NCBI GenBank assembly: GCA_048499955.1 | Contig: JASNYX010000001.1 | Location: 2,452-66,451 of the forward strand | Source: Patescibacteria group bacterium | GTDB lineage: Bacteria; Patescibacteriota; WWE3; 2-01-FULL-39-13 | Direction of reading: 5' to 3' | DNA: 64,000 nucleotides | Shown: one piece after another, positions 2,007 to 58,040 of the stretch | How the letters are laid out: each line of letters begins with the position of its first letter | Numbering within the stretch: position 1 is the first letter of the stretch | The notes under the pieces: model-generated | Told to the model about the DNA's origin: nothing | Database searches by the model: none | The model's input: only the letters and a program-made list of their open reading frames with translations | Translations under genes and position numbers: made by a program

Positions 2007-3326
2007 ATGAATGAAAATAATTTAACACCCTTGTCTGATAAAAATCCCTTTCCGGAAAATAACCAGAATCAAACTCCGACCAATACGGCAAACAACGGCC
2101 ACTCCGAATCAGAATATGCAGAGAAACAACCTTTAATCAAACCTGGCAAATTGAGGAGGTTAAAAGCGCTAGGAATCGGATTGGCGATCTTTCTTTTTCT
2201 AGGAGTCGTAGCGTTATTCGCAGTTGCATCATTAACTCAAAATTCGCAGATTCCCTTGCCGACAGCTCCGATAGATGATGATACAGAACAAATCGTCGAG
2301 ATGTCGAAAACCCCTCAATTTGCTTATATAAAGAATGGGAAAGAAATATGGGCAGTAGACGTTACCGGTGAGAACAAAATACTTGTACTGGAATTATCGC
2401 CCGTGGAACAAACTTCATTCACCGCATTATCATGGAAATCTCCGGGTAATTTAACCTATACAATATGTCCGGAGCTATCCGGCTCAAACCAAAATTCAAG
2501 CTGCAAAATTAAGACGATAAACCTTGAGAACCGAGCAGTATTTGATGAATTCGAACTAAATGAGCAAATAAAGAAGATGTCTTGGGATATAACCGGTAGG
2601 TATATGGCTATAGTTTCAGAAGATAATGAGAGTACTTACTTCAAGTTGAAAACAGGAACAATAGTTACAACATTAAATCAGTTTTTAAAAATGCCTGATC
2701 CTGCAGGTACAGATTCAAGGGTGTTTTTTACGCCTGATAGTCAGAATGTTATTTTCTCAGCTATTAGTAGGGTAGTCATCGAAAGAACTAACCGTGAAGA
2801 CGAAGTAATCATAACTCCACTTATTAACACTTACCTGCTTAATGGAACAAAGATAGATGAAATTGAGCAAGCAAAAGATCCTTTCTTAATGTCTCCTAAC
2901 CAAATAGGGTATAGGGTTGAAGATCGATTGGTCTATAGAACCCTTGGTGAAAATGAGGACACCGTGATTACCGACCTTAACGGTTTCAGTCCGGCAATTT
3001 CTCCCGATAAAAGCCAAATTGCATACTGGTATGCGGAAGGTAATCTTAATAATGTGATATTAGGAGTTTTTGATGCGAAATTAAATATTCATAGAAATAT
3101 ATTGCGGGGCATAATTCTTCCCCTTTGGTTGGATGATAAAAAAATAGTAGGAATTAAAGCTGATAATTGTGCTTCCAGTAATTGCCAATTGTATCAATTT
3201 CAGACGAACAGCATTTCGATATTCGATCTTTCAAGAGGGAACGTAATACAAATCGATCATGGGAAAAAAATTATAGAACCAACTTTCACTGATTTTTCAG
3301 AAGTAGCTCGTAATCCGTCGGAATAA
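2007..3326 (+). CDS. Membrane-anchored hypothetical protein, N-terminal TM helix then beta-propeller-like (TolB/PD40-like) ectodomain
   Basis: Long ORF with one hydrophobic helix (LAIFLFLGVVALFAVASL) and repeated propeller-like segments (SPDKSQIAYWY, TPDSQNVIFSA); no specific family recognised. Confidence 0.6.
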   Translation: MNENNLTPLSDKNPFPENNQNQTPTNTANNGHSESEYAEKQPLIKPGKLRRLKALGIGLAIFLFLGVVALFAVASLTQNSQIPLPTAPIDDDTEQIVEMSKTPQFAYIKNGKEIWAVDVTGENKILVLELSPVEQTSFTALSWKSPGNLTYTICPELSGSNQNSSCKIKTINLENRAVFDEFELNEQIKKMSWDITGRYMAIVSEDNESTYFKLKTGTIVTTLNQFLKMPDPAGTDSRVFFTPDSQNVIFSAISRVVIERTNREDEVIITPLINTYLLNGTKIDEIEQAKDPFLMSPNQIGYRVEDRLVYRTLGENEDTVITDLNGFSPAISPDKSQIAYWYAEGNLNNVILGVFDAKLNIHRNILRGIILPLWLDDKKIVGIKADNCASSNCQLYQFQTNSISIFDLSRGNVIQIDHGKKIIEPTFTDFSEVARNPSE

Positions 3327-3327
3327 A

Positions 3328-5013
3328 ATGCCAATCAAAGAAGATAGTCAAAGTACACTAGATGTTTTAAGTGCAATAGCCGGAGGAACAGGGCGTAAAC
3401 ACCCGGTTCCCCAAAACGTAATGGATGTTGAATTCAAAGTGGTGGGAGATTTGTCTCTGAGGCAAGTAGCCTACGCTTTTGCCGGAGTTGGAGTCGCATA
3501 TTTGTTTTTTAAATCCGGCCTTCCGAACTTTTGGGCTTATTCTTTAGCCATTTTCTCCCTAGTTGCAGGAGCTGCAATTGCGTTCGTACCTTATGAAGAA
3601 AGAACTTTAGATAAATGGCTGGTGTTATTTATTCGAGGAATGTTCAGACCCACTCAAATGATATGGAGAAAAGACGAGTATTCCCCGGCATACTTTCTTG
3701 CTGATTATGCGGATATTATCAAAAATGAGATCATAACCCTAACTCCAACAAAAAGCAGAAACAAACTGGATGACTATCTTGGACGTCTCCCCGACGACCC
3801 CGATAACATGGATATTTATAGTAAGGATAGAGTCCAGGATATCTTCCTACAAGTTGAGAATTTAAATATAGGAGCCGAAGTCGTCACTAATGATAATCTC
3901 ATCTCAATGAGAGCAAAGGAAGACGAGCCCAAATTAAAATTCCCTGATATTCACACAACAAAACCTGTCGTAACTGCTAACCAAGCTTCTGAAATACAAA
4001 CACCTGCACAAACTTTACCTACCACACCAACAGAAACAGCACCTCCCATAAGCCCTAAAGAACCGCAATTGGTAGTACAAGACAAAATTGATAACCAAAC
4101 AAGAAATGCACCCTCAAGCGAACCATATGTACCACCCAACAAAAATGAAATAGTTAACGCAGAAATTGAAACCAAAAAAGAACTCGTTGAGGCACTTAAC
4201 ACTAACTATGTAGAAGTTGTATCTTCCGATCATATTGATAGACCAATAAAAAATTGGCCAACCGAACTCGACTCACAAATTAAAGGTGAATTTAAAATAA
4301 AAACATCTACCAAACTGCCACCGACAATCGTGGCACAAGATATAAAAGTAATTAAGGAACAAGAAGAATCTCTAGAAAAGAAGGTGCATGAGCTACTTGA
4401 GGTTGCAGATAGAGCTAAGAAAGAATTCCAGGGTAAAGGATTTCAAATTGATAATAATTCGAGAATGGAATTCTACAAGAACAAATACCATGAATTAAAG
4501 CAAGAAAAAGAGACACTCACTACGGAAATAAGCAAAAATACGTCAAGAGTAAATATGCTTGAGGGGCATAAACAAAAAGAACCTCTGGAAAAACAGGTAA
4601 ATGAATTAACAGATAGAAACAAAGAACTTGAAGAAAAACTAATGCAAATACAAGAACAACTTTTCAATCTCCAGAAAAAACCCGAAGAAAAACCGGTTAT
4701 CAAAGAACCGGAACCTCCAAAAGATCGTGTTTTAAATACTTCTGATTCTGAAAATATAAATATTATTAGCGGAACTGTAAAAGGTAAATCAGGTGATCTG
4801 ATAGAAAACGCAGTTGTACTGATTAAGGATTTGCAAGGTAATGTTTCCAGGGCTTTGAAAACTAATAAGCTCGGCCAATTTAAAACCCAAACACCAATGC
4901 CTAACGGTTCATACGACATACACATCATAAAAGGCGGTGAAAACTTTGATATAATTCGTGTTGAAGCCGTTGGTGCAGAAATAAGCCCCGTTTATATGAT
5001 TGGAAAGCCTTAA
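3328..5013 (+). CDS. PrgI/VirB3-like T4SS membrane protein with long coiled-coil/Pro-Thr-rich extension and C-terminal carboxypeptidase-regulatory-like beta domain
   Basis: N-terminal two-helix hydrophobic core (VAYAFAGVGVAYLFF...LAIFSLVAGAAIAFVPY) typical of VirB3/PrgI, directly upstream of VirB4-like ATPase; heptad-rich KE segment; C-terminal SGTVKGKSGDLIENAVVLIKDLQGN beta-sandwich-like segment. Confidence 0.5.
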   Translation: MPIKEDSQSTLDVLSAIAGGTGRKHPVPQNVMDVEFKVVGDLSLRQVAYAFAGVGVAYLFFKSGLPNFWAYSLAIFSLVAGAAIAFVPYEERTLDKWLVLFIRGMFRPTQMIWRKDEYSPAYFLADYADIIKNEIITLTPTKSRNKLDDYLGRLPDDPDNMDIYSKDRVQDIFLQVENLNIGAEVVTNDNLISMRAKEDEPKLKFPDIHTTKPVVTANQASEIQTPAQTLPTTPTETAPPISPKEPQLVVQDKIDNQTRNAPSSEPYVPPNKNEIVNAEIETKKELVEALNTNYVEVVSSDHIDRPIKNWPTELDSQIKGEFKIKTSTKLPPTIVAQDIKVIKEQEESLEKKVHELLEVADRAKKEFQGKGFQIDNNSRMEFYKNKYHELKQEKETLTTEISKNTSRVNMLEGHKQKEPLEKQVNELTDRNKELEEKLMQIQEQLFNLQKKPEEKPVIKEPEPPKDRVLNTSDSENINIISGTVKGKSGDLIENAVVLIKDLQGNVSRALKTNKLGQFKTQTPMPNGSYDIHIIKGGENFDIIRVEAVGAEISPVYMIGKP

Positions 5014-5019
5014 AATTAG

Positions 5020-5715
5020 ATGCCGAAAATTAACTTATCGACACAAAGCCATCTTGATATAGCACAAATCAAAAATAATATCGTGGTACTGAAAAATGGC
5101 GGAGCTGCAGCGATAATAGAAACCAATGCAATTAACTTCGATTTATTGGCAGTACAAGAACAAGATGCGGCAATTGCGGCGTATAGTTCACTCCTGAATT
5201 CCCTTACTTTTCCTATACAAGTAACAATCAGATCAAAAAAGATGGATATCACAGACTATCTGGAAAGGGTAAAAGAATTCGAGGAAAAACAAACGAACCC
5301 AAAAGTTAAAAGCCAAATACAAATGTACAGATCCTTTATTAAAGATGAACTGGTAACAAAAGAAAATGTATTAGAAAAACGATTTTATGTAACCATACCT
5401 TATAAAACTTTCGATCTCGGAAATTCTTCTAGCCCATTAGGGTTCCTTGAAGGATTTTTGGATTTACAACCCAAGCCGAAAACAAAAATAAACGTTGACC
5501 AGATATTAGAAGAAGCTAAAACCGAGTTGGATCCCAAAGTAATATTTTTAATTAAAGAATTTGGTAGGATAGGTATTAAAGCAAATCAAGTAAAAACTCC
5601 CGATCTTATCAAACTATTTTATGAGATTTATAACAGTGAAACAGCACAGAATCAGAGAATTAAAGGCGACATGGAACACTTTACTTCAACTTTAGTAGAA
5701 CCGAAAATTATTTAA
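5020..5715 (+). CDS. Hypothetical protein between VirB3-like and VirB4-like genes (T4SS-associated by position)
   Basis: 231-aa ORF, tightly packed (6-nt and 9-nt gaps) in the same operon; no recognisable motif. Confidence 0.6.
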   Translation: MPKINLSTQSHLDIAQIKNNIVVLKNGGAAAIIETNAINFDLLAVQEQDAAIAAYSSLLNSLTFPIQVTIRSKKMDITDYLERVKEFEEKQTNPKVKSQIQMYRSFIKDELVTKENVLEKRFYVTIPYKTFDLGNSSSPLGFLEGFLDLQPKPKTKINVDQILEEAKTELDPKVIFLIKEFGRIGIKANQVKTPDLIKLFYEIYNSETAQNQRIKGDMEHFTSTLVEPKII

Positions 5716-5724
5716 TAGCTTAAT

Positions 5725-7956
5725 ATGAATTTGCCTTTCCTAAAAAAGAAAACTCCAGAAACAACACCCAACACAAACCAACAAAACAATATTGGGGTTT
5801 CAGTGCCGGGTATGGCTACTTCTACTGCCTCATTAGCAAAACAAACTTCGTCGGCGAAACTTCCTGAAACAGCGGAAAAAGCTCTGGCAAAAGGCATACC
5901 AAGCGTTCAGGATATCATTGCTCCGAGTGCAATAGAGGTGGATTATAACTATGTCAAAATCGGTGATAAATACTTTAGAACTTTATTTGTGTCTGCGTAT
6001 CCACGTTTTGTAGGGGCAAACTGGTTAGAGCCTATTATTAACTTTGATCATGCTTGTACGGTTACGATGTTTTACTACCCGATGAATGCCAGGAATGTTT
6101 TAGATGATTTAAGAAGAAAAATCGCTGAAATGGAGGCGACACTGAGCATGGCGAAAGAGCGGGGGAGAGTCGTTGACCCGGCAGTCCAAGCAGCCTTGGG
6201 GGATGCAAAATCTTTACAGGAACAGCTGGTTAAAGGTATCGAAAGGTTTTTCCACTTTTCATTCTATATTACATTGTCAGCACCAACATTAGAGGAACTA
6301 AACAACGTAAGTTATCAAATGGAATCCACACTGGGCTCTCTTTCTTTAATTTCGAAGAAAGCTACTCTGGACATGGAAAACGCTTTTAAATCGACCCTAC
6401 CATTATGTTTGGATAGGCTGAAAGTCATCAGAAATATGGATACTACTTCGGTAGCAACAACATTTCCTTTTACCTCAAGTGAACTTACCGCCAACGAAGG
6501 TATTTTATATGGAATCAACAAACACAATGGATCACTTATTATCTTCGATAGATTTTCACTTGAAAACGCCAACGCTGTAATTTTTGCTAAATCAGGTTCA
6601 GGTAAATCCTACTTCGTTAAACTGGAAGCCCTAAGATCGTTATTATTCGGAACCGGTGTTATCGTACTTGATCCTGAAACAGAATATAAGAAATTGTGCG
6701 AAGCAGTAGGAGGAGATTACATTGATTTCAGTATTAACACAAAAGCAAAAATAAACCCGTTCGAGCTCTCCGTGACGGAAGACAATGAAGATAATTTAAG
6801 TATGAAAATTCTGAGTCTTCATGCTCTTTTGAAAATCATGTTAGGAGACATGTCCAGTGCGGAAGCTGCCGTGCTTGACCGAGCCTTAATTGATACTTAT
6901 CGACTAAAAGGAATTACACAAGATCCGGCCTCACAACAACATAATGAACCACCTCTGATGGAAGACCTTTATAAAACCCTTCAAGTCATGGAAGAACCTG
7001 AATCAAAGGCATTAGCTGCCAGGCTTGAACGATTCGTAAAAGGTTCTCTTGCCGGTATTTTTGACCAAAGATCTAACCTTGATTTAAGTAATGACTTTAC
7101 TGTTTTTTCTATCCGAAACCTACAAGATGTGCTAAGGCCAATTGCAATGTTTATGATACTTGATTTTATTTGGACTAAAGTCAAATACAATCTTAAACGT
7201 CGAATGCTGATTCTCGACGAAGCATGGACTTTAATGCAATATCCTGACTCGGCCGCTTTCGTATATTCATTAGCGAAAAGAGCTAGAAAATACTATCTTG
7301 GGTTAACAACTATCACTCAAGACGTAAATGACTTTTTAAATTCAGACTATGGAAAAGCAGTAGTAACAAACTCTTCTATTCAAGTTCTCTTAAAGCAGCA
7401 TCCTGCTTCGATGGAGGCGCTTACTGAAATTTTCTACCTCTCAGGTGGGGAAAGGAACTTTTTGCTCTCAGCGGGCATTGGAGAGGGCTTATTCTTTGCA
7501 GGAACCAATCACGTTGCTATGTCAGTTAAGGCTTCGAAACAGGAACACGCACTGATAACTACAAATCCTGCAGAAGTTATGAAGATGCAAAAAGATCAGG
7601 ATATTGAAAAGCTAATTCAGCAAAATATAAACAGCAACAATTTGGCAAACATGCAATCGCAAGCTATGAATAATAATTCCCTAAAGATCAACACAGTTCC
7701 CAACGTACAACCCGGAGTACCACCTGTCACAAACAACAATCCTGGCAGCACTGTAATACCGGTAGTAACACCCATTAACCAGGCACCTATAAATACGCCA
7801 ACCAATGTTGGTCAGGTTAATCCTTATGAAAGTAAATCGGTACCACCGAATAATTCTTCGGTACAAATGCCAAACCCGATGGTAGGCGAAGATCAGGAAA
7901 ACAACTACACAAGTGGCACAATAATGCTGAATCCGAATAGAAATAATCAGGAATAA
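5725..7956 (+). CDS. virB4: VirB4/TrbE/CagE-family type IV secretion ATPase with Q/N/P-rich C-terminal tail
   Basis: Walker A AKSGSGKSY, Walker B LILDEAWTL, overall VirB4 (DUF87) layout; last ~130 aa low-complexity (NNNSLKINTVPNVQPGVPPVTNNNPGS...). Confidence 0.85.
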   Translation: MNLPFLKKKTPETTPNTNQQNNIGVSVPGMATSTASLAKQTSSAKLPETAEKALAKGIPSVQDIIAPSAIEVDYNYVKIGDKYFRTLFVSAYPRFVGANWLEPIINFDHACTVTMFYYPMNARNVLDDLRRKIAEMEATLSMAKERGRVVDPAVQAALGDAKSLQEQLVKGIERFFHFSFYITLSAPTLEELNNVSYQMESTLGSLSLISKKATLDMENAFKSTLPLCLDRLKVIRNMDTTSVATTFPFTSSELTANEGILYGINKHNGSLIIFDRFSLENANAVIFAKSGSGKSYFVKLEALRSLLFGTGVIVLDPETEYKKLCEAVGGDYIDFSINTKAKINPFELSVTEDNEDNLSMKILSLHALLKIMLGDMSSAEAAVLDRALIDTYRLKGITQDPASQQHNEPPLMEDLYKTLQVMEEPESKALAARLERFVKGSLAGIFDQRSNLDLSNDFTVFSIRNLQDVLRPIAMFMILDFIWTKVKYNLKRRMLILDEAWTLMQYPDSAAFVYSLAKRARKYYLGLTTITQDVNDFLNSDYGKAVVTNSSIQVLLKQHPASMEALTEIFYLSGGERNFLLSAGIGEGLFFAGTNHVAMSVKASKQEHALITTNPAEVMKMQKDQDIEKLIQQNINSNNLANMQSQAMNNNSLKINTVPNVQPGVPPVTNNNPGSTVIPVVTPINQAPINTPTNVGQVNPYESKSVPPNNSSVQMPNPMVGEDQENNYTSGTIMLNPNRNNQE

Positions 7957-7962
7957 ATTTCT

Positions 7963-9072
7963 TTACCAGGAAGCCCTCATAGGCATCACAATATACAGGT
8001 AATCGTCATTTCCTGTAACCTTAAAGGCAGCTGGCTTTAACGGATCGTTAGCTTCAAAAGAAATTTCATCACCTTCCGCATTGCTTACAAGGTCTATCAG
8101 ATACTTTGCATTAAATGCAATTTCAATAGGAGTACCTGTGAATTCTCCTTGGACTTTTATGATGTTACTACCGGACTCAGTAGGTTGAGAGCGAACTTCA
8201 ACAAGATCTGCATTCGCAACCATTTTTACCATGTTGTCCTGATCTTTCGAAAATACACTAGCCAACTTAATGGCATTACTCACTTCCGATTTGGCGATTA
8301 AAACTTTGGTATTAAATTCAGAAGGAATAATTGCTCTATAATCAGGATATTCGCCTTCGATCATTCTAAGTTGAGCCTGCATATCTTTCACCCTAAGATT
8401 CACAACATTTCGGTTATTGTTAATAAACATCTCCACATACTCATTTTCGGAAGAAAAAGATTTTACGATATCAGTAAAGGATCGGGAAGGTACAATGCAG
8501 GAAGACTCAAATCCATAGTCTTTATCTAGCTTAATTTTATACTCCGCCATTCTGAAACCATCCGTCACAGCAAGAGTCATCTGATCCTTCGATATCATGA
8601 TATAAATACCGGTTAATACCGGCCTGCTTTCATTTACACCGGGAACAAATTGAATATGCTGAAGTGCCCTCACCAAATCTTCTGATTTAAGCTTCACATG
8701 ATCGCCCTCTTCTATAACTTCAATATCAGGAAACTCTGATGCGGGTAGTGTAGTAAAGGTGGAAGTTATCTTCTCGGTCTGAACGTGAAATTTACCATCT
8801 GCGACGGAGCAATCGACTTTATCTTCGTTTATCTGACCGATGAAGCTTTGTAATAGTTTAGCGGGTATAGTAGTCTCGCCCGGTTGTTCGATGTTGGCAT
8901 TCGTCCATATTGAAATAGTTACCTGCAAGTCAGAAGCGGTCATTTTAATTTGACCCTCTTCAGTTTTAACCAGAATATTGGATAAAGCAGGGATAGCAAC
9001 TTTAGGGTTAACAGCTTTGTTAACAATGTTTACGCCTTTGTTAAAAGGTCCTCTAATAATGCTGAATTTCAT
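7963..9072 (-). CDS. dnaN: DNA polymerase III beta sliding clamp
   Basis: 369-aa three-domain clamp-like sequence (MKFSIIRG..., DGFRMAEY). Sequence check: revcomp of 9061-9072 is ATGAAATTCAGC, and the tail 7963-7974 ttaccaggaagc reverse-complements to ...gct tcc tgg taa (ASW*). The ORF is therefore minus-strand, despite the '+' label in the supplied track. Confidence 0.9.
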   Translation of the reverse strand: MKFSIIRGPFNKGVNIVNKAVNPKVAIPALSNILVKTEEGQIKMTASDLQVTISIWTNANIEQPGETTIPAKLLQSFIGQINEDKVDCSVADGKFHVQTEKITSTFTTLPASEFPDIEVIEEGDHVKLKSEDLVRALQHIQFVPGVNESRPVLTGIYIMISKDQMTLAVTDGFRMAEYKIKLDKDYGFESSCIVPSRSFTDIVKSFSSENEYVEMFINNNRNVVNLRVKDMQAQLRMIEGEYPDYRAIIPSEFNTKVLIAKSEVSNAIKLASVFSKDQDNMVKMVANADLVEVRSQPTESGSNIIKVQGEFTGTPIEIAFNAKYLIDLVSNAEGDEISFEANDPLKPAAFKVTGNDDYLYIVMPMRASW

Positions 9073-9084
9073 ATGTAAATAGAA

Positions 9085-9585
9085 TTACTGAGAATCCACA
9101 CTGATATCCGCACCTGAGTCATTTTCCGAATCCATGGAAATTATAACTTTCCTGTTAGGGCCGTCACCTTCAGAATATGACCTGACCCCTTCGATGGCGT
9201 TGACTACTTCATGCACAATTTTGCGTTCATAACTGCTCATCGGATATAGACTAACGGATTTATTAAGTTCTTTAGCTTTTGAGGCAGCATTCGAAGCCAT
9301 TTCCCTCAATTTTGTTTCCTTATTTTTTCTGTAATTGCTAACATCAATAACTATGGGAGCATGCTCGCCAAGTTCTTTGGATAGAAAAATGTTAATAAGA
9401 AACTGTAAGGAATTTAATGTATGTCCATGATAACCGACTAAAAGGCTATCACTTGTGGTTCTCAAATTAAAATAGAGCTTTTCTTCTGTCGGATGTTCCA
9501 CTTCAGAGGAATACTCAATGTCCAGATATCCTAAAATTTCTGAAAGAAGTTCTTTAACTCGCTGTTCCAGGTTTTGATTTTCCAT
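9085..9585 (-). CDS. jag: Jag/KhpB-like RNA-binding protein (KH + R3H domain)
   Basis: R3H-like segment YERKIVHEVVNAIEGVRSYSEGDGPNRKVII; conserved position downstream of yidC. Confidence 0.8.
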   Translation of the reverse strand: MENQNLEQRVKELLSEILGYLDIEYSSEVEHPTEEKLYFNLRTTSDSLLVGYHGHTLNSLQFLINIFLSKELGEHAPIVIDVSNYRKNKETKLREMASNAASKAKELNKSVSLYPMSSYERKIVHEVVNAIEGVRSYSEGDGPNRKVIISMDSENDSGADISVDSQ

Positions 9586-10336
9586 AATAATTCAAATATA
9601 AGTACTGAAGTGCAGTCAAAACTGTAGACACAAGCCAATACCAAACTAAACCAGCGGGAAGACTAATGCCAATAACTAAAGTTAAAATCGGCATAGTATA
9701 CAACATTTGTTCTTGCATATTATACATAATGTCGTCAACCTTGTCAGGCGTGTTTTCTGCGACTTTCTCTACTTTTTTGGTTGCAGGAGCCATTAATCTG
9801 GATAAATAAAACTGGGCAGCCGCAGCTAAGACCGGTAAAACGTAGTTAGGTCGTGCCAAATCTATGTTGAATAAATTAGTATTTAACTGCTGATCGGGTT
9901 GAAACTTGAGATAATCCCAATTATAAAGCATCGAATTTATCGTATCCAACATTACCTGGTGATCCTGAAAGAGCGTGTTAAAAATGCTGTATAAGGGTGC
10001 CAAAATGAAAATAAAAGTGAACAGCTGAGGCAAACAACCGGACGCAGGATTTATGCCTTCCTGCTTATAAAGCTCCATCTGTTTTTGAGCAAGTTTCTGC
10101 TTGTCATCTTTATATTTTGCCTTCAGTTCATCAAATTTGGGTTTAAGCTCCCTTTGTTTCTTAGCAATCTCATAGGAGTTTTTTGTCATAGGGTAGGTGA
10201 CAACTTTCACAAGCAATGTGACAGCTAAAATAGCGAGTGCCATATTATCAGAACAAAGGTGATAAAAGAAAACCAGAAGGTTGAAGAGAGGATAATATAT
10301 TATGTTGTTCCAAAGGAAAACGATGGGATTTGCCAT
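9554..10336 (-). CDS. yidC: Membrane protein insertase YidC/Oxa1 (short form)
   Basis: Polytopic 260-aa protein with YidC-like helices and a KKQ-rich amphipathic loop; operon position rnpA-yidD-yidC-jag. Confidence 0.85.
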   Translation of the reverse strand: MANPIVFLWNNIIYYPLFNLLVFFYHLCSDNMALAILAVTLLVKVVTYPMTKNSYEIAKKQRELKPKFDELKAKYKDDKQKLAQKQMELYKQEGINPASGCLPQLFTFIFILAPLYSIFNTLFQDHQVMLDTINSMLYNWDYLKFQPDQQLNTNLFNIDLARPNYVLPVLAAAAQFYLSRLMAPATKKVEKVAENTPDKVDDIMYNMQEQMLYTMPILTLVIGISLPAGLVWYWLVSTVLTALQYLYLNYYGKSKPGTAS

Positions 10337-13116: not shown

Positions 13117-14514
13117 ATGAAGTTTATGACCTCACCTGATCCTGATTTTATTTGGAACGAAGTAAAAGGCGAATTACAAAAAGTGACAAATCCGGCTCAC
13201 TACAAAGCTTATATTCCGGGAACTTTTATCAAGAAAATAGATGAAACAGATTACCTAATAGAAATAACCGCACCAAGCGAATTCCAACGAAATTTTATAG
13301 AAGATCGAATGTATGGCCACATAAAGGATTCAATTTCCAGACTAGTAGGCCCCAAGTACAGGTTAATGTTTAGCGTAACTAAAAAAGAACCGGCCCAAAT
13401 GAGTATTGATGATTTTGGCCCTTTATTCGAACAAAAACAGGAGCAAGAACTTAGTATCCAAAGCGTCAAGCAAGATGCAGGTTTAAATCCTCAATATACT
13501 TTTGAAAGATTTGTTGTCGGTAATCATAATCGTCTTGCCTATGCTGTATCTACAGCTATCGCAGAGAATCCCGGTAAAATTTATAACCCGTTCTTCTTAT
13601 ATTCAGGAGTTGGATTAGGTAAAACACATTTAGTTCAGGCAATCGGGCATAAAATTATTGAAAAACATCCGAATTTAAAAATTCTTTACAAAACAGGTGA
13701 GCAGTTTCTGAATGAAGTTGTAGATGCCATTCGGAAAAATAAAAATGGCCCCATGGATAACAGAAGAAATAATCTTAAAAAGATGTATAGAAATATAGAT
13801 GTCTTGATCGTCGATGATATACACTCGATAGCGGGAAAAGAATCCACACAGGAAGAGTTTTTCCATACATTTAATGCTTTATATATGTCTCAAAAGCAAA
13901 TTATCCTGACTTCAGATAGATCCCCTAAAGAAATAAAAACTTTAGAAGAAAGGTTATCTTCTAGATTTGCCAGTGGCATGATGGCAGATATACAAAAACC
14001 CGACATGGAAACACGTCTGGCCATTCTTAAAGATAGAAACGACGAACTACATTTGAATTTAAATGAGGATGTACTTGAGCATATAGCGGTAATGGTTGAT
14101 ACAAATATTAGGGAGCTGGAAGGGAAACTTCTTCAAACAGCTATCAGAGCCAAAAGTGAAGGAATGGAATTAAATAAAGAAAATGCAACTCAAATAATAG
14201 GCGAGATAGATAAAGCAAAAGGAAAACTTATAACTCCAAATCATATTATGCATGAGGTTTGCCAATTCTATAATGTAACTCAAAAAGAGTTAAAAGGAGC
14301 AAGAAGATTAAAAACAATCGTCGTTCCCAGACAGATATGTATGTATATGCTAAGAGATATCACCAAGATGGGTCTACAATCTATTGGTGAGATCCTAGGG
14401 AAAAAAGATCATACAACGGTTATTCATGCCTTACAAAAGATAGAATTGGAAATCAAAAAAAATTCTCGTGTATTCAAAGAAATAGAAACCATTAGATCCC
14501 GCTTATATCTTTAA
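13117..14514 (+). CDS. dnaA: Chromosomal replication initiator DnaA
   Basis: 465 aa; AAA+ Walker A GVGLGKTHL, Walker B LIVDDIH, C-terminal DNA-binding helix (ICMYMLRDITKMGLQSIGEILGKKDHTTVIHA). Confidence 0.95.
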   Translation: MKFMTSPDPDFIWNEVKGELQKVTNPAHYKAYIPGTFIKKIDETDYLIEITAPSEFQRNFIEDRMYGHIKDSISRLVGPKYRLMFSVTKKEPAQMSIDDFGPLFEQKQEQELSIQSVKQDAGLNPQYTFERFVVGNHNRLAYAVSTAIAENPGKIYNPFFLYSGVGLGKTHLVQAIGHKIIEKHPNLKILYKTGEQFLNEVVDAIRKNKNGPMDNRRNNLKKMYRNIDVLIVDDIHSIAGKESTQEEFFHTFNALYMSQKQIILTSDRSPKEIKTLEERLSSRFASGMMADIQKPDMETRLAILKDRNDELHLNLNEDVLEHIAVMVDTNIRELEGKLLQTAIRAKSEGMELNKENATQIIGEIDKAKGKLITPNHIMHEVCQFYNVTQKELKGARRLKTIVVPRQICMYMLRDITKMGLQSIGEILGKKDHTTVIHALQKIELEIKKNSRVFKEIETIRSRLYL

Positions 14515-20284: not shown

Positions 20285-22933
20285 TTAAAGCGGGAAGTTA
20301 AGGCTGATATTTTTATCAAAAACCCCTTCATATTGAATCGAGTTGTTATTGGTATTTATGGATGCAGATGGTTTGAAAACCCCGGGAACCCCAAGCGGAT
20401 AATCTAAGTTTACGGTTAGTGGAACATTACCCATAAAAGGGTTCTTTTGCGCTATTATGTGTAAATTTTTACTGTTCACGCTGTCGATTTCCGATGATTC
20501 GTAATTAAAACTTACAGTGCTGAAGCTATTTGATTTTATGATTAGCTCTGTTGAAAACATTGCTTTTCCGGAATAAGACTTCACCAAAACATTTCGTAGT
20601 ATATTTTTCTGCTCATTATCTTCAAACAAGTAGGCCTTATTCAAAAAAACTTCCTTGGGAAGCAACACTTTTACGTTTCGTACAACATCCTGTTGCCCTT
20701 TATTTTCTAAAACTATCGCTAATTCACGCGTATATTGGGCATTATCAGGTTTATTGCCTTTATATTGGAGTCTTACACTCAACAAGTCGGGATCTTCGGA
20801 TATGTTGGAAATTTCGTTGAAAGATGGTTCTATTGATACATAAAAGTAGTCGTCTCCAAGATTAAGAAGGTTACCGTCCCAGTTGTTTGAAGATAGAACG
20901 CTTCTGATTTGTTCGCTTTTATGGTTAAGTACCATCTTTTTAGAGGCGAGGCTTTGGAGAAGCATATTAGTTAGGTCAAATGTCATTCTTTCAGGTAGGC
21001 TTTCAATTAATTCTTTAAAATTCTTTGTCGGATCATTACCGGTATTTAGCTTTTGGCTCAAAGAAAGAAGAAAAGCTTCATCGATTAAAAGTACACCATC
21101 TACTGTTTCTCCTTTTGCATCTTTATATATTTGATAACCTTTTCCTGCCATATTACTGATATTCAGTTCTTCTGCTGATTTTTCAGGTTCAAGAAAGCGG
21201 GAGACATCATCGGTATCAAAATTGTTTAATTCAAGCTGGTCTTTTAGACTCTCTAGAGGTTGTAGATCCGACGCGGTAATTTTTCTGTTGTGCAGTTGAA
21301 GGATCGAGTAACTCTTATAGTGTGGAAAGCTAAGATTTCCGGTGACTTGATATGTGATAAGCAAATATTTTTTTTCTTCGCGGAGTCCGAAAAGTTCAGG
21401 CAAATGTTTTTCCAGATCGCTAAGGGCTTTAACATTATTCTTATTTGACAAAATTTCGTTATTTATTTTATTTACCCAAGAGGTTATCCAAGAGCCTTGT
21501 GATTTTATCGAATTAATATCGTTTTCAAGTGATTGCAAAGTTTCTATAGTGGAATCAAATTCGTTTACACTTGATTCCCCCAGTACGCGGTTATCTCCAC
21601 TTCCGGAGGCGTATGAAAGCAATCCTGTGGAAAGGGATTTAATTGCACGGGCTGATTTTCTGGAGGTGCTAACGAATAATGCTAAATCGTCATTTTTTGT
21701 GTGAAAGAGGCGACTTAGGGTTTTTATAAGAAAGGGAGGATTTCCTTCCGGAATGAATTTTAAAGCGGTTGAGCTTTCTTTTTCGGATTTTAAGACTTCA
21801 TAGTTGCTCAAATACTTAATGGATTGATCAAGGTGTGCGAGTCCTCTGCTTAGTTTAAAGGTATACAAGACCGATGGAGCCGCTAGCACGGCGATCAAGA
21901 TTAAGACTAGTCCGGCTATTTTCATGTTTGCAGTTTTTCGTTTTCTGCGTTGAGGTTTATTTTCTGCGATGGCAGTTTCAAAGACGTCTTCCTTTTGTAA
22001 ATCAGGAAAATTAGACGATCCGGGTGAAGTGTATTTGTCAAAAGTATGATTGTTTAAAACATATACAGGGGTATTGTCAGGCTCATCATATATATCCTGG
22101 GGATTATTTACGGAACTTGAATCCATATCGTATTCTTCGTCGGATGTTCCCAGTGCAGGGATCCCATAGATGTCCAGTAATTCCTTTAGCCCTTTTTCAA
22201 GATCTACTATTGGGTACCAGTTTTCGGGGTAGTTGGTGTCTACGTCAGCAACCATTGTTCTTTCGTAAACATCTTCTCGGTTTGAAAAATCTATTTTAGA
22301 AGGTAGCTCATTTAGGTCGTTAATAAAGTGAGCGAGCTCTATTTCTGTTATGGATTCCTCCGGAAGAAGGGTGAGATTTCTGACTCTAGCAGTTTGGGAG
22401 GAATTAGCAATATATTCAATTGACTTTATAAGGCCATCAAGAAAATCGTTCTCATGAATTAAGTAATATTCTCTGTTGTCATTCGTAACGTTCAAGGGAT
22501 CCCCGCTTACTATTGATTCAAGAAATTCAACTAGCTTATCGCAGGTATTAAGATTTTTCCCGTAGATTTCATCGATTAAAATCTGTGATGCTTTTACTTT
22601 TACCTGTGATGTATATGTATTTATGTAATCTAGATAAAGAGCTGTTGATGATTCAGATTCGCTCGACTCTTTGTATAGGAAGATAAAAGGAACATTAAGT
22701 TTTGCAGCTAGATCAATGAGATTTCTAATTTCCAGAAGATCAGCCTCTTGTGAATTTCTCACTGTGACGCCTAGAGCTGAGTTTGTGTCGATGACCGCTC
22801 CATACGATTTATGCGGGTCAAACTTGAAACTTGTGACATTGGAAATATCTTGGGAAAGGTAGTCCTTGTCGAGTAACGTATTATGCAGGTACTCAGATAT
22901 TTTATTGTTTCCCGAGATAAGGAAGTTGTTCAT
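20285..22933 (-). CDS. Large (882 aa) single-pass membrane protein; cytoplasmic N-terminal region, extracellular C-terminal region (DUF4012-like, tentative)
   Basis: One TM helix (MKIAGLVLILIAVLAAPSVLY) after a basic RRKRK stretch; no catalytic motif recognised. Confidence 0.65.
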   Translation of the reverse strand: MNNFLISGNNKISEYLHNTLLDKDYLSQDISNVTSFKFDPHKSYGAVIDTNSALGVTVRNSQEADLLEIRNLIDLAAKLNVPFIFLYKESSESESSTALYLDYINTYTSQVKVKASQILIDEIYGKNLNTCDKLVEFLESIVSGDPLNVTNDNREYYLIHENDFLDGLIKSIEYIANSSQTARVRNLTLLPEESITEIELAHFINDLNELPSKIDFSNREDVYERTMVADVDTNYPENWYPIVDLEKGLKELLDIYGIPALGTSDEEYDMDSSSVNNPQDIYDEPDNTPVYVLNNHTFDKYTSPGSSNFPDLQKEDVFETAIAENKPQRRKRKTANMKIAGLVLILIAVLAAPSVLYTFKLSRGLAHLDQSIKYLSNYEVLKSEKESSTALKFIPEGNPPFLIKTLSRLFHTKNDDLALFVSTSRKSARAIKSLSTGLLSYASGSGDNRVLGESSVNEFDSTIETLQSLENDINSIKSQGSWITSWVNKINNEILSNKNNVKALSDLEKHLPELFGLREEKKYLLITYQVTGNLSFPHYKSYSILQLHNRKITASDLQPLESLKDQLELNNFDTDDVSRFLEPEKSAEELNISNMAGKGYQIYKDAKGETVDGVLLIDEAFLLSLSQKLNTGNDPTKNFKELIESLPERMTFDLTNMLLQSLASKKMVLNHKSEQIRSVLSSNNWDGNLLNLGDDYFYVSIEPSFNEISNISEDPDLLSVRLQYKGNKPDNAQYTRELAIVLENKGQQDVVRNVKVLLPKEVFLNKAYLFEDNEQKNILRNVLVKSYSGKAMFSTELIIKSNSFSTVSFNYESSEIDSVNSKNLHIIAQKNPFMGNVPLTVNLDYPLGVPGVFKPSASINTNNNSIQYEGVFDKNISLNFPL

Positions 22934-23049: not shown

Positions 23050-23469
23050 ATGGAACAATACAACTTATTCACAGATGGCGGATCTAGGGGTAACCCGGGG
23101 CCTGCAGCAATCGGAGGCTGTGTAGTCTCTTTAAATGGCGAGATCTTATTCACTTTCAAAGAATTCATCGGAATAACTACGAACAACGCGGCAGAGTACA
23201 AGGCATTAATTAACGGTCTTATGTTATCTCTAGATAACGAAATTAAAGAATTATCATGTTTTCTTGACAGCGAATTGGTGGTTAAGCAACTCAATGGGCA
23301 ATATAAAGTTAAAAGCCCCGATATCAAGATTTTGTATGATGAGGTAAAAACATTGTCCCGGAAATTTTCAAAGTTAAGTTTTTCACATGTTCCAAGATCA
23401 AAAAATTCTGTGGCAGATAAATTGGTCAACGAGGCATTGGATGCGGAACTTAAAGGATACAAAAATTAA
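23050..23469 (+). CDS. rnhA: Ribonuclease H (RNase HI-like)
   Basis: FTDGGSRGNPGPAAIG active-site start, TNNAAEYKALI, C-terminal SKNSVADKLVN; 139 aa. Confidence 0.85.
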   Translation: MEQYNLFTDGGSRGNPGPAAIGGCVVSLNGEILFTFKEFIGITTNNAAEYKALINGLMLSLDNEIKELSCFLDSELVVKQLNGQYKVKSPDIKILYDEVKTLSRKFSKLSFSHVPRSKNSVADKLVNEALDAELKGYKN

Positions 23470-26039: not shown

Positions 26040-26053
26040 TTATAATAGGTTTA

Positions 26054-27159: not shown

Positions 27160-27161
27160 AT

Positions 27162-32220: not shown

Positions 32221-32274
32221 AAATGAATTTTTAACATCACATAGTATCACGAATAAACTTCGCACTCTACCATT

Positions 32275-33303: not shown

Positions 33304-33329
33304 ATTTCTCTATAAATAATCTATCACTA

Positions 33330-37567: not shown

Positions 37568-39094
37568 ATGCAAATAATAAAAACCTTAACCACTACAATT
37601 AATATCGTGCAAAGCAAGTTGCAAAGACATCGAATGATTTTATATGTAGTGTTTGTTGCTTTCCTTGCCTTTACACAAACTGCTATCTTTGCCCAAAATA
37701 ACGCTAATCAGCAAGCTCCATCAATGGAAGAAAGTACGCAAATACCCGTGTATGCACCATCCGGAACTTCAGGTGTGAACAGCCCGGCTACCGGCGAGAA
37801 GTCAAACTTGCAGAACCTGACTTCTCCTGATCAGGCAGATGCTCAAATATTCCAAACATTAACGAGAACCGTTAGTAGCATGTATAGCTTTTTTTGCTCA
37901 GTTGGATCTCTAAACGGTGCAGGTGAATGTGAAATAACTCGTCCGATGTGGGCGGCAAGTCTTTTAGTAAAGGATTTGCTAATTGATATGGCGTTCGTGT
38001 CTATTTGTTCTAAGACAGGTGAAGAGGTGGTTTCAGATCGTGCTTGCGGTAATGCGGCTTTAACTGCTCAATTATTAGAAAATCCTCAGGCTCTACGCGG
38101 AACTCCGGAGAATCCCTATGTGAGATTTGAGGGAGATGGAGCATTTTTTATAGCTTCTAACTTCCATTCGGTTGCAAACGAACCTCCTATCCCCACTGAT
38201 TTAGCACTTTTTATTGATGATACTTTCCAAGATACTATAATGCCGGGTTCATCAGCGTATGCACAAGGAATTTTCGTGGAACCATATAGAGCTTTTGTAA
38301 TTCGAGGTTGGAGATTGTCTAGAAATATTGCACTTTCACTGTTAGGTGCCTTCGTTGGTATAGCCGCGTTAATGGTGATGTTCAGAACTCAGATTGCACC
38401 AAAGGTCGCGGTTTCCGTTTATAGCGTTTTGCCTATGATACCTATCTCGTTAGGACTAATATTACTTTCGTATCCGATATTATCTTTGATATACGGATTT
38501 ATTCCCCCGTTCGTTGGGTTCGTAATGGCTTTTAGCAGTACGATTATTGTTGAGGTGTTTAGCATTTCCGGAGGAGTTGCAAATTTGGCATCCCTTGCAT
38601 TTACCGGGTTGATTCTTAGTGCGGCATCAGGCGGAACTTTCACTTTAATTATCGCTATTTTAGCGGCACTTGGAGTTGGAATTCTATTTATATTGGGATT
38701 AACAATCTTGTGGCAGCTATGTAAGATTTTTGCATCTTTGATATTTTATACTTTTGCTGCGCCTTTCGTTTTCCTTATGGCTGTTATTCCCGGTAAGAGT
38801 GGGCTCATCATGAATTTTTTCAAAAAAATTGCAGTTGATGTTTTTACAGTTCCGGCAATCATACTTATGGCAACCTTAGGTTTTGCGATAATTGCTTACG
38901 GTCCGGACTCTGCTGATATTTTCAGTTGGAATATCGGAGCCAGTTTTGCCGCGGTTGGTTTTACCTTCTTCGCATCATTTATTAAGCTTTTCATTGGTAT
39001 GGGTATTTTGTGGAATGCGAAAAATGCTCGAGGTAGCATTGAACGGTTGATGGGAGCCGGTAACCTTTGGGGAATGGATCCACCCAAGAGATAA
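37568..39094 (+). CDS. Polytopic membrane protein, VirB6/TrbL-like (signal peptide, ~250-aa periplasmic domain, 6-7 TM helices)
   Basis: Architecture only (no motif): cleavable-looking leader MILYVVFVAFLAFTQTAIFAQ, then a dense TM bundle from aa ~255 to 480; divergent from the M23 giant operon. Confidence 0.45.
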   Translation: MQIIKTLTTTINIVQSKLQRHRMILYVVFVAFLAFTQTAIFAQNNANQQAPSMEESTQIPVYAPSGTSGVNSPATGEKSNLQNLTSPDQADAQIFQTLTRTVSSMYSFFCSVGSLNGAGECEITRPMWAASLLVKDLLIDMAFVSICSKTGEEVVSDRACGNAALTAQLLENPQALRGTPENPYVRFEGDGAFFIASNFHSVANEPPIPTDLALFIDDTFQDTIMPGSSAYAQGIFVEPYRAFVIRGWRLSRNIALSLLGAFVGIAALMVMFRTQIAPKVAVSVYSVLPMIPISLGLILLSYPILSLIYGFIPPFVGFVMAFSSTIIVEVFSISGGVANLASLAFTGLILSAASGGTFTLIIAILAALGVGILFILGLTILWQLCKIFASLIFYTFAAPFVFLMAVIPGKSGLIMNFFKKIAVDVFTVPAIILMATLGFAIIAYGPDSADIFSWNIGASFAAVGFTFFASFIKLFIGMGILWNAKNARGSIERLMGAGNLWGMDPPKR

Positions 39095-57989: not shown

Positions 57990-58040
57990 GTGCTGATTAT
58001 ACAAGGGAAAGGCCCAATATTATACCGTTATGGAGGAGCC

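Follow-up and report, generated by a model that had tools for sequence, protein, structure and literature searches.

A T4SS membrane and ATPase module of the WWE3 lineage with an oversized PrgI/VirB3 homologue whose extension is most likely cytoplasmic

Introduction

VirB3 proteins are small, 10–15 kDa polypeptides with short cytoplasmic tails, and PrgI of pCF10 has 117 aa, whereas a homologue encoded in the window (the whole 64-kb stretch of DNA analysed here) has 561 aa. This raises the question of what the additional part consists of, on which side of the membrane it lies and what kind of machine it serves. The initial annotation had seen in these genes a T4SS module that pairs a VirB3/PrgI-like protein with a VirB4, which profile and structure matches confirm, and had described the extension as extracellular, a possible surface adhesin or spacer, against which the evidence speaks. 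The module itself is already known. It corresponds to the ATPase and inner-membrane core of the T4SS of the Patescibacteria type, described in 2025 in a study covering the abundance of TrsD, PrgI, the proximity of dnaA/dnaN and the lack of a relaxase (PMC12102498).

The operon and its host

Positions 2007–7956 contain four genes, which are real as annotated and form a single operon:

2007..3326, + strand: gene of a 439-aa protein, the first of the operon
3328..5013, + strand: PrgI/VirB3 homologue, 561 aa (PF12666 match, AF2 model)
5020..5715, + strand: TrsD/TraC-like protein, 231 aa (NCBIfam, PF26593, Foldseek)
5725..7956, + strand: VirB4 ATPase, 743 aa (NF045971, PDB 4ag5)

All are co-directional, with the stop codon of the 439-aa gene 1 nt ahead of the PrgI start and spacers of 6 nt between prgI and trsD and 9 nt between trsD and virB4. 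The 439-aa protein possesses a single N-terminal TM anchor (aa 55–73) and weak WD40-type Pfam matches, while its orthologue in the related locus L001 has a faint PD40/Tricorn match. In the window and in seven of the fetched loci closest to it, a beta-propeller gene stands immediately 5' of PrgI. This protein is likely a TM-anchored beta-propeller (WD40/PD40-like) and an extracytoplasmic accessory component. The loci nearest to the window come from candidate division WWE3 and encode VirB4s with about 80% identity; the window belongs to a small-genome Patescibacterium of the WWE3 lineage, as its description as a small-genome bacterium had anticipated.

The PrgI/VirB3 homologue

Pfam PrgI (PF12666) matches aa 26–111 of the 561-aa protein (E 1.3e-10; 42.1 bits, cut-off 27), and CarboxypepD_reg matches aa 480–533 (E 1.5e-6), the latter slightly below the cut-off (28.9 against 32.3 bits). 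Pfam, AF2 and Foldseek agree with the two-helix core and the Pro/Thr-rich, helical and beta-rich regions that had been read from the sequence, and these can be placed as follows:

3400..3660, + strand: PrgI core (Pfam, alignment, hydropathy, AF2)
3871..4113, + strand: Pro/Thr/Gln-rich disordered linker, aa 182–262 (AF2 pLDDT <50)
4321..4674, + strand: three long coiled-coil-like helices, aa 332–370, 377–409 and 417–449 (AF2 pLDDT ~90)
4759..5010, + strand: transthyretin-like (CarboxypepD_reg-like) beta-sandwich, aa 478–561 (Pfam, AF2 pLDDT ~95, Foldseek)

A near-invariant N-terminal HPVPQN motif (aa 25–30) marks the core, in which TM1 (aa 44–62), a loop of ~6 aa and TM2 (about aa 67–87) form a hairpin, followed by a further helix at aa 94–106. 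The AF2 model is of low confidence at aa 100–330. Within this region, the linker varies in length among relatives, and its alignment columns are gapped and unconserved. Coiled-coil HMM matches are restricted to the window and to loci L001, L003, L004, L006 and L008–L010; judged from these matches, only the clade closest to the window has the helical insert, a clade-level elaboration.

The beta-sandwich, which spans aa 481–558 in the AF2 model and carries the conserved motif RALKTNxLGQF, resembles the regulatory domains of carboxypeptidases D/N in Foldseek (E 3e-5). It is found in 312 cluster representatives at E<=1e-10. The PF12666+PF13620 architecture is common to 57 homologues, and PrgI occurs together with the beta-sandwich in 63 of 63 informative WWE3/Microgenomates loci. 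In other words, the oversized PrgI is a conserved lineage variant and not an idiosyncratic protein, the beta-sandwich being the conserved part of its extension.

The divided VirB4 ATPase

The 231-aa protein had been described as lacking a recognisable family, which its profile matches and fold contradict. It matches the NCBIfam models VirB4_plasma (positions 107–234, E 5.6e-8) and TrsD/TraD (E 1.8e-7, 31 bits against a cut-off of 200), as well as positions 10–128 of the CD1110 model (E 2.3e-5). Pfam PF26593 (TraC-like) is present in 114 of 117 homologues, the other three being short fragments, and the top 14 Foldseek matches of the AF2 model are all TrwK/VirB4 chains. In 76 of 77 loci, the gene is located immediately 5' of virB4, and in locus L076 the TrsD-like protein is fused to VirB4. 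This protein is the initial portion of the VirB4 N-terminal domain, detached as a polypeptide of its own.

The 743-aa protein complements it. Its match to the CD1110-family VirB4 model NF045971 (387.5 bits, cut-off 325) covers model positions 177–740, and the first ~176 positions of a full-length VirB4 are missing; the VirB4 C-terminal domain of PDB 4ag5 is matched with E 3e-52. Walker A (AKSGSGKS, aa 288–295, nt 6586–6609) and Walker B (MLILDE, aa 494–499, nt 7204–7221) were located, intact as initially reported. By its motifs and profile match, it is the remainder of VirB4, with its ATPase motifs preserved. Two features lie at its C-terminus:

7570..7953, + strand: low-complexity C-terminal tail of VirB4, aa 616–743 (composition)
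7870-7929, + strand: tail-end motif PNP[YFM]..[FY]..G[TS]I.[LIM], aa 716–735 (clade-specific)

The tail follows TTNP and comprises 128 aa, of which 20% are N, 12% P and 9% Q. The richness in N, P and Q stated in the initial annotation holds, but its prion-like character is not supported; neither length nor composition is conserved among relatives. Tail length ranges from 0 to 375 aa in 83 VirB4s (median 42), and the terminal motif, found in nine of these but absent from the 4,245 other ORFs, is kept in the window's clade. Since a variable length is combined with a short conserved end, the tail is a disordered linker with a clade-specific terminal motif, again a clade-level elaboration, and not a demonstrated prion domain. 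Binding of this motif by the beta-sandwich was also considered but finds no support in co-occurrence, the sandwich being universal and both long tails and the motif confined to one clade.

Genomic context

The PrgI-TrsD-VirB4 trio occurs in the same order in 80 related loci (WWE3 and Microgenomates-group MAGs). In L001 and L003, the order is GroES/EL, beta-propeller, PrgI, TrsD, VirB4, dnaN, jag, yidC, rnpA and dnaA; a dnaN homologue is near virB4 in 69 loci and a dnaA homologue in 64. Profile searches of the whole 64-kb window revealed no T4CP (VirD4), relaxase or adjoining integrase. In systems of this type, VirB8, VirB10 and a locus-encoded T4CP are not recognisable. Of the other components sought on the contig, VirD4 is absent from the 64 kb, while a candidate for VirB6 is present 30 kb from virB4:

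37568..39094, + strand: 508-aa polytopic membrane protein with ~10 TM (HMM match, candidate VirB6 analogue)

This protein has no Pfam match and is matched with E 1.9e-29 by an HMM of the polytopic proteins encoded directly 5' of PrgI, built from L012, L027, L030, L032, L036 and L047; such a protein is present in 28 loci. Position and topology make it a candidate VirB6 analogue.

Location of the extension and alternative explanations

VirB3/PrgI proteins have two TM helices, with the N and C termini both in the cytoplasm (PMC12857230; PMC12624023). In 145 family members, the hairpin loop does not exceed 8 aa and has no K/R in 137, K/R being concentrated ahead of TM1 and behind TM2. Hydropathy indicates no TM segment after the hairpin in the window protein or its relatives. 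The extension is fused to PrgI in 55 of 63 loci, and in eight genomes it is a separate gene between prgI and trsD, which reflects eight independent prgI gene fissions with ATGA, TAAATG or TAGATG junctions; the stand-alone products (498–903 aa) contain no signal peptide, TM or hydrophobic segment. Among the top 150 beta-sandwich proteins, 84 carry the PrgI N-domain and 59 lack both PrgI and a TM, an N-terminal hydrophobic segment being seen only in unrelated repeat proteins (one of 882 aa and some of six giants). Given the VirB3 topology, the charge distribution of the hairpin and the signal-less stand-alone forms, the ~450-aa extension is most likely cytoplasmic, as far as homology, simple hydropathy and charge counts allow.

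The opposite placement, in which the extension crosses outward and the secretion apparatus brings its own attachment domain, draws on a terminal fold of the carboxypeptidase regulatory/Cna-B type, which is common in surface proteins (the Foldseek matches include many), and on P/T-rich linkers, which like CarboxypepD_reg/Cna-B-like sandwiches are more typical of extracytoplasmic proteins; the organism is also likely an epibiont. Such a surface spacer or adhesin would nevertheless need an inverted VirB3 topology or an additional TM, which is absent, and would turn outward conserved segments, N-terminal and post-TM, expected to bind cytoplasmic VirB4/TrsD. The stand-alone forms without signal peptide or TM also oppose it, and the operon has an extracytoplasmic protein with a classical anchor already (2007–3326), leaving this explanation a small chance. 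Encoded between prgI and trsD but devoid of a Sec signal, the stand-alone forms could instead mark the extension as a T4SS substrate or an exported tip- or needle-like component, the substrates of Patescibacteria T4SS being unknown (PMC10633639). A domain covalently joined to a membrane hairpin in most loci is incompatible with export, however, and makes this highly improbable. In addition, the known extracellular structural parts of T4SS (VirB2, VirB5, adhesins) use Sec.

It is likewise very unlikely that the whole module is left over from, or carried by, an integrated conjugative element, or that it serves as a Ced-like DNA importer, instead of being a housekeeping machine for secretion or a pilus. 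Its VirB4 does belong to a conjugative MPF-FATA-type family (CD1110 model above cut-off), and an IS200-like transposase (40802–41344) and a ComFC-like gene (60798–61499) lie in the window; yet throughout WWE3/Microgenomates the module has a fixed synteny with groEL, dnaN, yidC and dnaA, the 64 kb hold no relaxase, T4CP or integrase beside the module, and its GC content is unremarkable. The VirB4 match to CedB is weak (E 5e-14), its 51.8 bits being far under the cut-off of 700, and the T4SS of S. epibionticum is essential independently of ComEC (PMC12857230).

Comparison with known systems

In Southlakia epibionticum ML1, the neighbouring genes SEML1_0010 (PrgI family, 300 aa), 0009 (293 aa) and 0008 (VirB4-like, 612 aa) are all essential (PMC10633639). 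The order PrgI, TrsD-like protein of ~230–290 aa and VirB4 is that of the window (PMC10633639; PMC12102498), all three genes are required for epibiotic growth, and a relaxase is lacking in both. The PrgI of S. epibionticum also exceeds the canonical length and has a helical C-terminal part, but its record holds only a helical-domain match after the core, with no beta-sandwich match and no 120-aa helical insert. Its VirB4 lacks the long tail of the window protein, and pilin arrays and VirB6 adjoin virB4, whereas the window's candidates are ~30 kb away.

The conjugative plasmid pGO1 carries a relaxase and a T4CP, both absent in the window, and TrsC is small. Among classical T4SS subclasses, only the pGO1/pSK41 type of MPF-FATA has TrsD as a protein of its own, a remote homologue of the VirB4 N-terminus, and TrsC is a distant homologue of PrgI (PMC12102498). 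The series trsC (VirB3-like), trsD and trsE (VirB4) shares the separate TrsD with the window, although the window protein scores far below the cut-off of the NCBIfam TrsD/TraD model. As in the window, a gene for a two-TM hairpin adjoins virB4 in pCF10 (PrgI-PrgJ) and R388 (TrwM(VirB3)-TrwK(VirB4)). The AF2 model of the window TrsD superposes on the N-terminal region of R388 TrwK, and the VirB4 core matches TrwK and 4ag5; unlike in pCF10 and R388, VirB4 is made of two polypeptides and bears a C-terminal tail.

VirB3 and VirB4 also exist as natural fusions in one protein (PMC12102498; PMC12624023), in which the C-terminus of the hairpin runs into cytoplasmic protein (PMC12624023). The SCO6880 family weakly matches the PrgI hairpin (E 0.12) and aa 89–229 of VirB4 (E 8e-8), which points to actinobacterial fusions of the hairpin with the VirB4-NTD. 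The partner in these fusions is VirB4, whereas the window PrgI is joined to a linker, a helical region and a beta-sandwich; Quinonero-Coronel et al. report no VirB3-VirB4 fusion in Patescibacteria (PMC12102498).

Conclusions

Overall, the operon is likely to provide the membrane platform and motor of a chromosomal, origin-proximal, MPF-FATA-derived T4SS typical of Patescibacteria, in which the PrgI extension may be a cytoplasmic scaffold or adaptor. A 1:1 stoichiometry of VirB3 and VirB4 and a membrane-anchored ATPase hexamer are expected (PMC12857230; PMC12624023), and by homology with R388 TrwM-TrwK and pCF10 PrgI-PrgJ, six PrgI hairpins would anchor the TrsD+VirB4 hexamer to the membrane. 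The beta-sandwich probably lies beside the membrane-proximal TrsD/VirB4 collar, because in short family members (~270–330 aa) it is tethered only ~40–100 aa from the hairpin. Short conserved elements in the helical insert and in the tail of VirB4 are connected by disordered linkers. In such an arrangement, we infer that the extension may act on the split ATPase, either by stabilising it or by docking a partner or substrate.

The T4SS module in the replication-origin region

Four co-directional ORFs on the + strand fill positions 2007-7956, separated from one another by 1, 6 and 9 nt. The genes prgI and virB4 are in one operon with trsD between them, and this order is kept in all informative related loci, that is, those with readable upstream sequence. 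The operon and its neighbours are as follows.

Genes of the origin region
222-1850: GroEL, upstream of the four-ORF module
2007-3326 (+): TM-beta-propeller protein, 439 aa, first gene of the operon
3328-5013 (+): PrgI/VirB3 homologue, 561 aa
5020-5715 (+): TrsD/TraC-like protein, 231 aa
5725-7956 (+): VirB4 ATPase, 743 aa
7963-9072: dnaN, downstream and convergent
Beyond dnaN, downstream and convergent: jag/khpB, yidC, yidD and an rnpA-like ORF
After the rnpA-like ORF: Na+/H+ exchanger, then dnaA (13117-14514)

Since its neighbours include GroEL, dnaN, jag/khpB, yidC, yidD and dnaA, the module is placed in the replication-origin region of the chromosome. The GC content (35-40%) is unremarkable. 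The closest loci share the order GroES/EL, TM-beta-propeller, PrgI, TrsD, VirB4, dnaN, jag, yidC, rnpA, rpmH and dnaA, and over the full set of loci dnaN homologues were found near virB4 in 69 and dnaA homologues in 64. A 139-aa RNase H-like (RVT_3) protein is encoded further along (23050-23469, +), with homologues 8-10 kb or less from virB4 in 19 related loci; this proximity probably reflects origin-region synteny and not a T4SS link.

The initial reading of the locus as a T4SS stands. TrsD and PrgI adjoin virB4 and the locus is close to dnaA and dnaN, as is characteristic of Patescibacteria-type T4SSs, and the module probably belongs to the chromosomal, origin-proximal, relaxase-less Patescibacteria T4SS clade of Quinonero-Coronel et al. 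2025 (PMC12102498). The pair that distinguishes a conjugative T4SS was absent from the window, in which neither a relaxase nor a type IV coupling protein (T4CP) was recognised among ORFs of at least 110 aa across the 64 kb. The same trio occurs in Southlakia epibionticum, where three neighbouring genes, all of them essential, encode a "PrgI family protein" (SEML1_0010, 300 aa), a 293-aa protein (SEML1_0009) and a VirB4-like protein (SEML1_0008, 612 aa; PMC10633639). Among T4SSs, that of Patescibacteria was the first reported to be essential for growth of its bearer (PMC12857230). The module itself is thus already known.

Relatives were collected with a VirB4-alignment scan of one genome per species, and the best 80 loci were considered. 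The closest, whose VirB4 is about 80% identical, come from MAGs of candidate division WWE3, followed by the Microgenomates-group lineages Curtiss-, Shapiro-, Woyke-, Beckwith-, Collier- and Blackburnbacteria. All of these best 80 loci look Patescibacterial, with core identities of 52-80%, and the informatively named MAGs are assigned to WWE3, the Microgenomates group or other Patescibacteria. The remaining MAGs carry evidently wrong labels; many locus-bearing records are named as Gammaproteobacteria, Pseudomonadales, Nevskiaceae, Clostridia, Bathyarchaeia or Nanoarchaeia (L015-L017, L020, L022, L038, L039, L055, L060 and others; L numbers denote the loci fetched for comparison). These records are probably mislabelled or contaminated bins.

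Predicted division of VirB4 between TrsD and a core ATPase

The 743-aa protein reaches 387.5 bits against the NCBIfam model of CD1110 family VirB4 (NF045971; cut-off 325), and matches the solved VirB4 C-terminal domain (PDB 4ag5, E 3e-52) as well as TrwK. Its Walker A (AKSGSGKS, aa 288-295) and Walker B (MLILDE, aa 494-499) motifs are intact, as initially annotated, and both are invariant in the VirB4 alignment. The match to the CD1110 model begins at position 177, leaving the N-terminal domain incomplete.

The missing part appears to be supplied by the 231-aa protein, to which the initial annotation had wrongly given no family. This protein matches positions 107-234 of the VirB4_plasma model (E 5.6e-8), positions 10-128 of the CD1110 model (E 2.3e-5) and the TrsD/TraD model NF041427 (E 1.8e-7, 31.2 bits against a cut-off of 200). 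A local Pfam search of the protein itself returned no match; the "TraC-like" family PF26593 is precomputed on 114 of its 117 homologues, including one that is 98% identical, and the other three are short fragments. A TrsD profile run against PDB sequences found nothing, and the link to VirB4 came from the fold search. With the AlphaFold2 (AF2) model (pLDDT 78) as query, the best 14 PDB neighbours in Foldseek were all R388 TrwK/VirB4 chains (probability 0.97-1.0, TM about 0.4-0.5 over about 210 columns, E 2e-3 to 2e-2), with no other PDB match below E 0.1.

Because the 231-aa protein covers the N-terminus of the VirB4 models and the 743-aa protein starts at position 177, VirB4 is predicted to be made as two polypeptides, TrsD and a 743-aa core. 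In 76 of 77 loci trsD immediately precedes virB4; in locus L076 (7365-9728) the two are fused in a single 787-aa ORF, an "unsplit" VirB4. This arrangement agrees with published work, in which TrsD is remotely homologous to the N-terminus of VirB4 and is the accessory component most abundant in Patescibacteria T4SSs (PMC12102498).

A conserved beta-sandwich at the C-terminus of PrgI/VirB3

Canonical VirB3/PrgI proteins are of 10-15 kDa with short cytoplasmic tails (PMC12857230). The homologue in the window exceeds this small size, having 561 aa, of which about 450 form an extension. Both the PrgI/VirB3-like core and the beta-rich, carboxypeptidase-regulatory-like domain proposed from the sequence were borne out. 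Pfam PrgI (PF12666) matches aa 26-111 at E 1.3e-10 and 42.1 bits (cut-off 27), spanning model positions 1-89 of 91, and CarboxypepD_reg (PF13620) matches aa 480-533 just under its cut-off (E 1.5e-6, 28.9 bits against 32.3).

An AF2 model built from an alignment of 34 homologues (mean pLDDT 69) contains a TM hairpin with helices at 44-62 and 67-86 (pLDDT about 96), in agreement with hydropathy, and a post-TM helix at 94-106. Moderate-confidence helices continue up to aa 179 and are followed by a disordered P/T-rich stretch (182-262), three long helices within 332-449 (pLDDT about 90) and a beta-sandwich at 481-558 (pLDDT about 95). In Foldseek searches against the PDB only the sandwich was matched, to regulatory domains of carboxypeptidases D, N and M (E about 3e-5; 3mn8, 2nsm), with Cna-B and transthyretin/HIUase as further neighbours.

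Extensions of this kind are conserved across the family in WWE3 and Microgenomates. The PF12666 plus PF13620 architecture is common to 57 database homologues of 354-738 aa, and precomputed PF13620 is present on most homologues of the 561-aa protein. A census of the window and 83 fetched loci, 63 of them with readable upstream sequence, found a PrgI N-domain and a C-terminal sandwich in all 63; a single ORF holds both in 55 (272-890 aa, median 371). A full-library search with the sandwich alone gave 312 cluster representatives at E<=1e-10, with the sandwich almost always at the extreme C-terminus, and a homologue search with the PrgI N-terminus by itself returned 3 fragments only. Conservation is confined to the two ends, with HPVPQN, the hairpin and the region just past it at one and the sandwich with its RALKTNxLGQF motif at the other. 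Between them both length and composition vary, and the three-helix insert is restricted to the closest clade of the window. A mid-extension motif, "DRPIKN...GE", found by regular expression in fused and split forms (see below), was not robust and was dropped.

Location of the extension relative to the membrane

The initial annotation regarded the extension as extracellular and suggested surface-exposed domains that may act in adhesion or as a spacer. This assignment is probably wrong. VirB3/PrgI proteins cross the membrane with two TM helices and keep both termini in the cytoplasm, and natural fusions to the cytoplasmic VirB4 occur (PMC12857230; PMC12624023). Among 145 family members the inter-helix loop has at most 8 residues and is free of K/R in 137, while K/R residues cluster just ahead of TM1 and within 40 residues past TM2. 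Hydropathy revealed no hydrophobic segment beyond the hairpin. The fold of the sandwich leaves the location undecided, since its PDB neighbours include secreted and intracellular proteins alike.

Further evidence comes from eight Woykebacteria-like genomes in which prgI is split (L034, L041, L049, L053, L055, L060, L063 and L070). In these, a PrgI ORF of 174-250 aa is followed by a separate ORF of 498-903 aa with the same terminal sandwich. As the junctions (ATGA, TAAATG, TAGATG) are typical of coupled genes and differ among the genomes, the split is not a sequencing artefact. By hydropathy, the split-off proteins have neither a signal peptide nor a TM segment in any of the eight genomes. Similarly, among the best 150 sandwich-bearing proteins, 84 carry the PrgI N-domain and 59 lack both PrgI and any TM segment; N-terminal hydrophobic segments occur only in unrelated repeat proteins (one of 882 aa and some of six giants). 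A location of the PrgI extension in the cytoplasm is therefore favoured as likely; it is consistent with the predicted features of both fused and split forms, and the large PrgI domain is probably not a surface adhesin.

The extracytoplasmic element of the operon is probably its first product, a type-II-anchored beta-propeller. This 439-aa protein has one N-terminal TM segment and a WD40/PD40-like propeller, and its stop codon lies 1 nt ahead of the prgI start. The gene directly precedes prgI in the window and in 7 of the fetched loci closest to it; in other clades it is replaced by a gene for a polytopic membrane protein.

The C-terminal tail of VirB4

Past the conserved TTNP residues (aa 612-615), the VirB4 tail comprises 128 residues with 20% N, 12% P and 9% Q (N+Q 29%), and the initial description of it as N/Q/P-rich is accurate. 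Its further description as prion-like is not supported. Orthologous tails past TTNP (n=83) measure 0-375 aa (median 42), 19 of them reaching at least 100 aa, and their composition differs by genome (Q-, P- or E/K-rich), with no conserved Q/N-rich character. In the clade of the window, a tail-end peptide, PNP[YFM]-x-[FY]xxG[TS]Ix[LIM], lies within the last ~35-45 residues of VirB4. Of 83 VirB4s, 9 contain it (L001 having a variant), and 4,245 other ORFs gave no match. The tail as a whole is best regarded as a fast-evolving disordered linker with a clade-specific short linear motif.

In L077 (7899-10865), L078 and L064, the VirB4 tails are E/K-rich and 207-375 aa long, ending in "...YD.LFGDGIV" (L078, L064) or "...YEDLF" (L077). 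These indicate that other clades have tail types and terminal motifs of their own.

A second cluster of candidate T4SS genes

The check for VirD4 and VirB6 proposed in the initial annotation gave a divided answer: no T4CP was found among ORFs of at least 110 aa in the 64-kb window, and a VirB6 candidate is present 30 kb from virB4. A polytopic protein of about 460 aa is encoded immediately ahead of PrgI in other WWE3/Microgenomates loci, and an HMM of these proteins identified a counterpart in the window.

Features of the second cluster
28582-37367 (-): three successive large envelope proteins, of 1227, 342 and 1345 aa
37568-39094 (+): candidate divergent VirB6, 508 aa, ~10 TM, matched by the HMM of polytopic PrgI-upstream proteins (E 1.9e-29)
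40105-40728, 43381-43815 and 43843-44229 (+): small proteins with 2-3 hydrophobic helices, around the VirB6 candidate

The 508-aa protein is a VirB6 candidate by position, through synteny in other genomes. It has no Pfam match, and the polytopic proteins upstream of PrgI gave no Pfam hit to VirB6, in agreement with the reported difficulty of detecting VirB6 in Microgenomatia (PMC12102498). The small proteins may be divergent VirB2-like pilins. Their scores are sub-threshold, with TrbC/VirB2 at E 0.016 for 43381-43815 and T4SS_pilin at E 0.09 for 40105-40728 (range for the group, E 0.09-0.29). Among the envelope proteins, the 1227-aa one has a weak glycosyl-hydrolase match and the 342-aa one a weak Cna-B-like match. 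The 1345-aa protein, near the VirB6 candidate, has 3 TM segments and a C-terminal M23 peptidase domain, and may have a VirB1-like function. Proteins matching it, probably by way of the M23 domain, are encoded close to virB4 in 9 other loci; in L056, for instance, the gene immediately follows virB4. With the VirB6 candidate and the pilin-like proteins this far from virB4, the T4SS genes of the window appear to be divided between two clusters about 30 kb apart.

In L002 (Woesebacteria; 3692-4830 and 4971-9950) the parts scattered in the window are clustered: ahead of the trio come genes for a 1293-aa protein and a single-TM protein of 347 aa, and just upstream of these three PF18895 T4SS pilin genes lie on the opposite strand. 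Other observations from the window include an IS200/Y1-type transposase (40802-41344, +) within the second cluster and four successive small proteins at 25443-27968 (+), each with an N-terminal hydrophobic helix and two with a prepilin N-methylation motif, suggesting a type IV pilin/minor pilin cluster. A tmRNA gene (Rfam 116 bits; tag peptide ANNADEYADVMVPAYAIA) lies beside smpB (57026-57430, -; 57537-58004, -). Two proteins of 882 aa (20285-22933, -) and 603 aa (58041-59852, -) have one internal hydrophobic segment each and no Pfam match.

Possible roles of the tethered sandwich and their significance

By homology with R388 and pCF10, PrgI hairpins would anchor the VirB4 hexamer in the membrane, the hexamer here being built from TrsD and the 743-aa core. 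The sandwich would then be tethered at the cytoplasmic face. Because only about 40-100 residues separate it from the PrgI core in short family members, its conserved place is probably beside the membrane-proximal TrsD/VirB4 collar. There it is proposed to serve as a scaffold or adaptor, which may stabilise the split ATPase or dock a partner, in a system with VirB8, VirB10 and a locus-encoded T4CP all unrecognisable.

A peripheral-stalk-like reach of the extension to the distal end of VirB4 is unlikely as a general role, given the tether of ~40-100 aa in many members. Binding of the sandwich to the VirB4 tail motif is not supported by co-occurrence, the sandwich being present in 63 of 63 informative loci and the motif in 9 of 83 VirB4s; joint occurrence of the motif and the coiled-coil insert is not independent evidence, as it is confined to one clade. 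A bolder proposal is that the cytoplasmic extension and the tail motif form a built-in platform for docking substrates or partners in place of a type IV coupling protein in an essential T4SS that lacks a relaxase, with six tethered sandwich domains per machine. The proposal is considered improbable; if true, it would give T4SSs a novel means of choosing what they move.

The main text of PMC12102498, a truncated version of its tables and targeted full-text searches yielded no description of the near-universal tethered sandwich on VirB3 in WWE3/Microgenomates, the gene fission, the implied cytoplasmic location or the tail motif, and the CarboxypepD_reg domain and the PrgI extension are not mentioned in that main text or that portion of the tables. 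In WWE3 and Microgenomates, VirB3 always comes with a tethered sandwich, or the next gene encodes one, which provides a handle for structural and genetic work. The split VirB4 (TrsD plus core) and the clade-specific tail peptide offer further handles of this kind. Together, they suggest truncations, pull-downs and the assignment of cryo-ET density on the cytoplasmic face of this T4SS.
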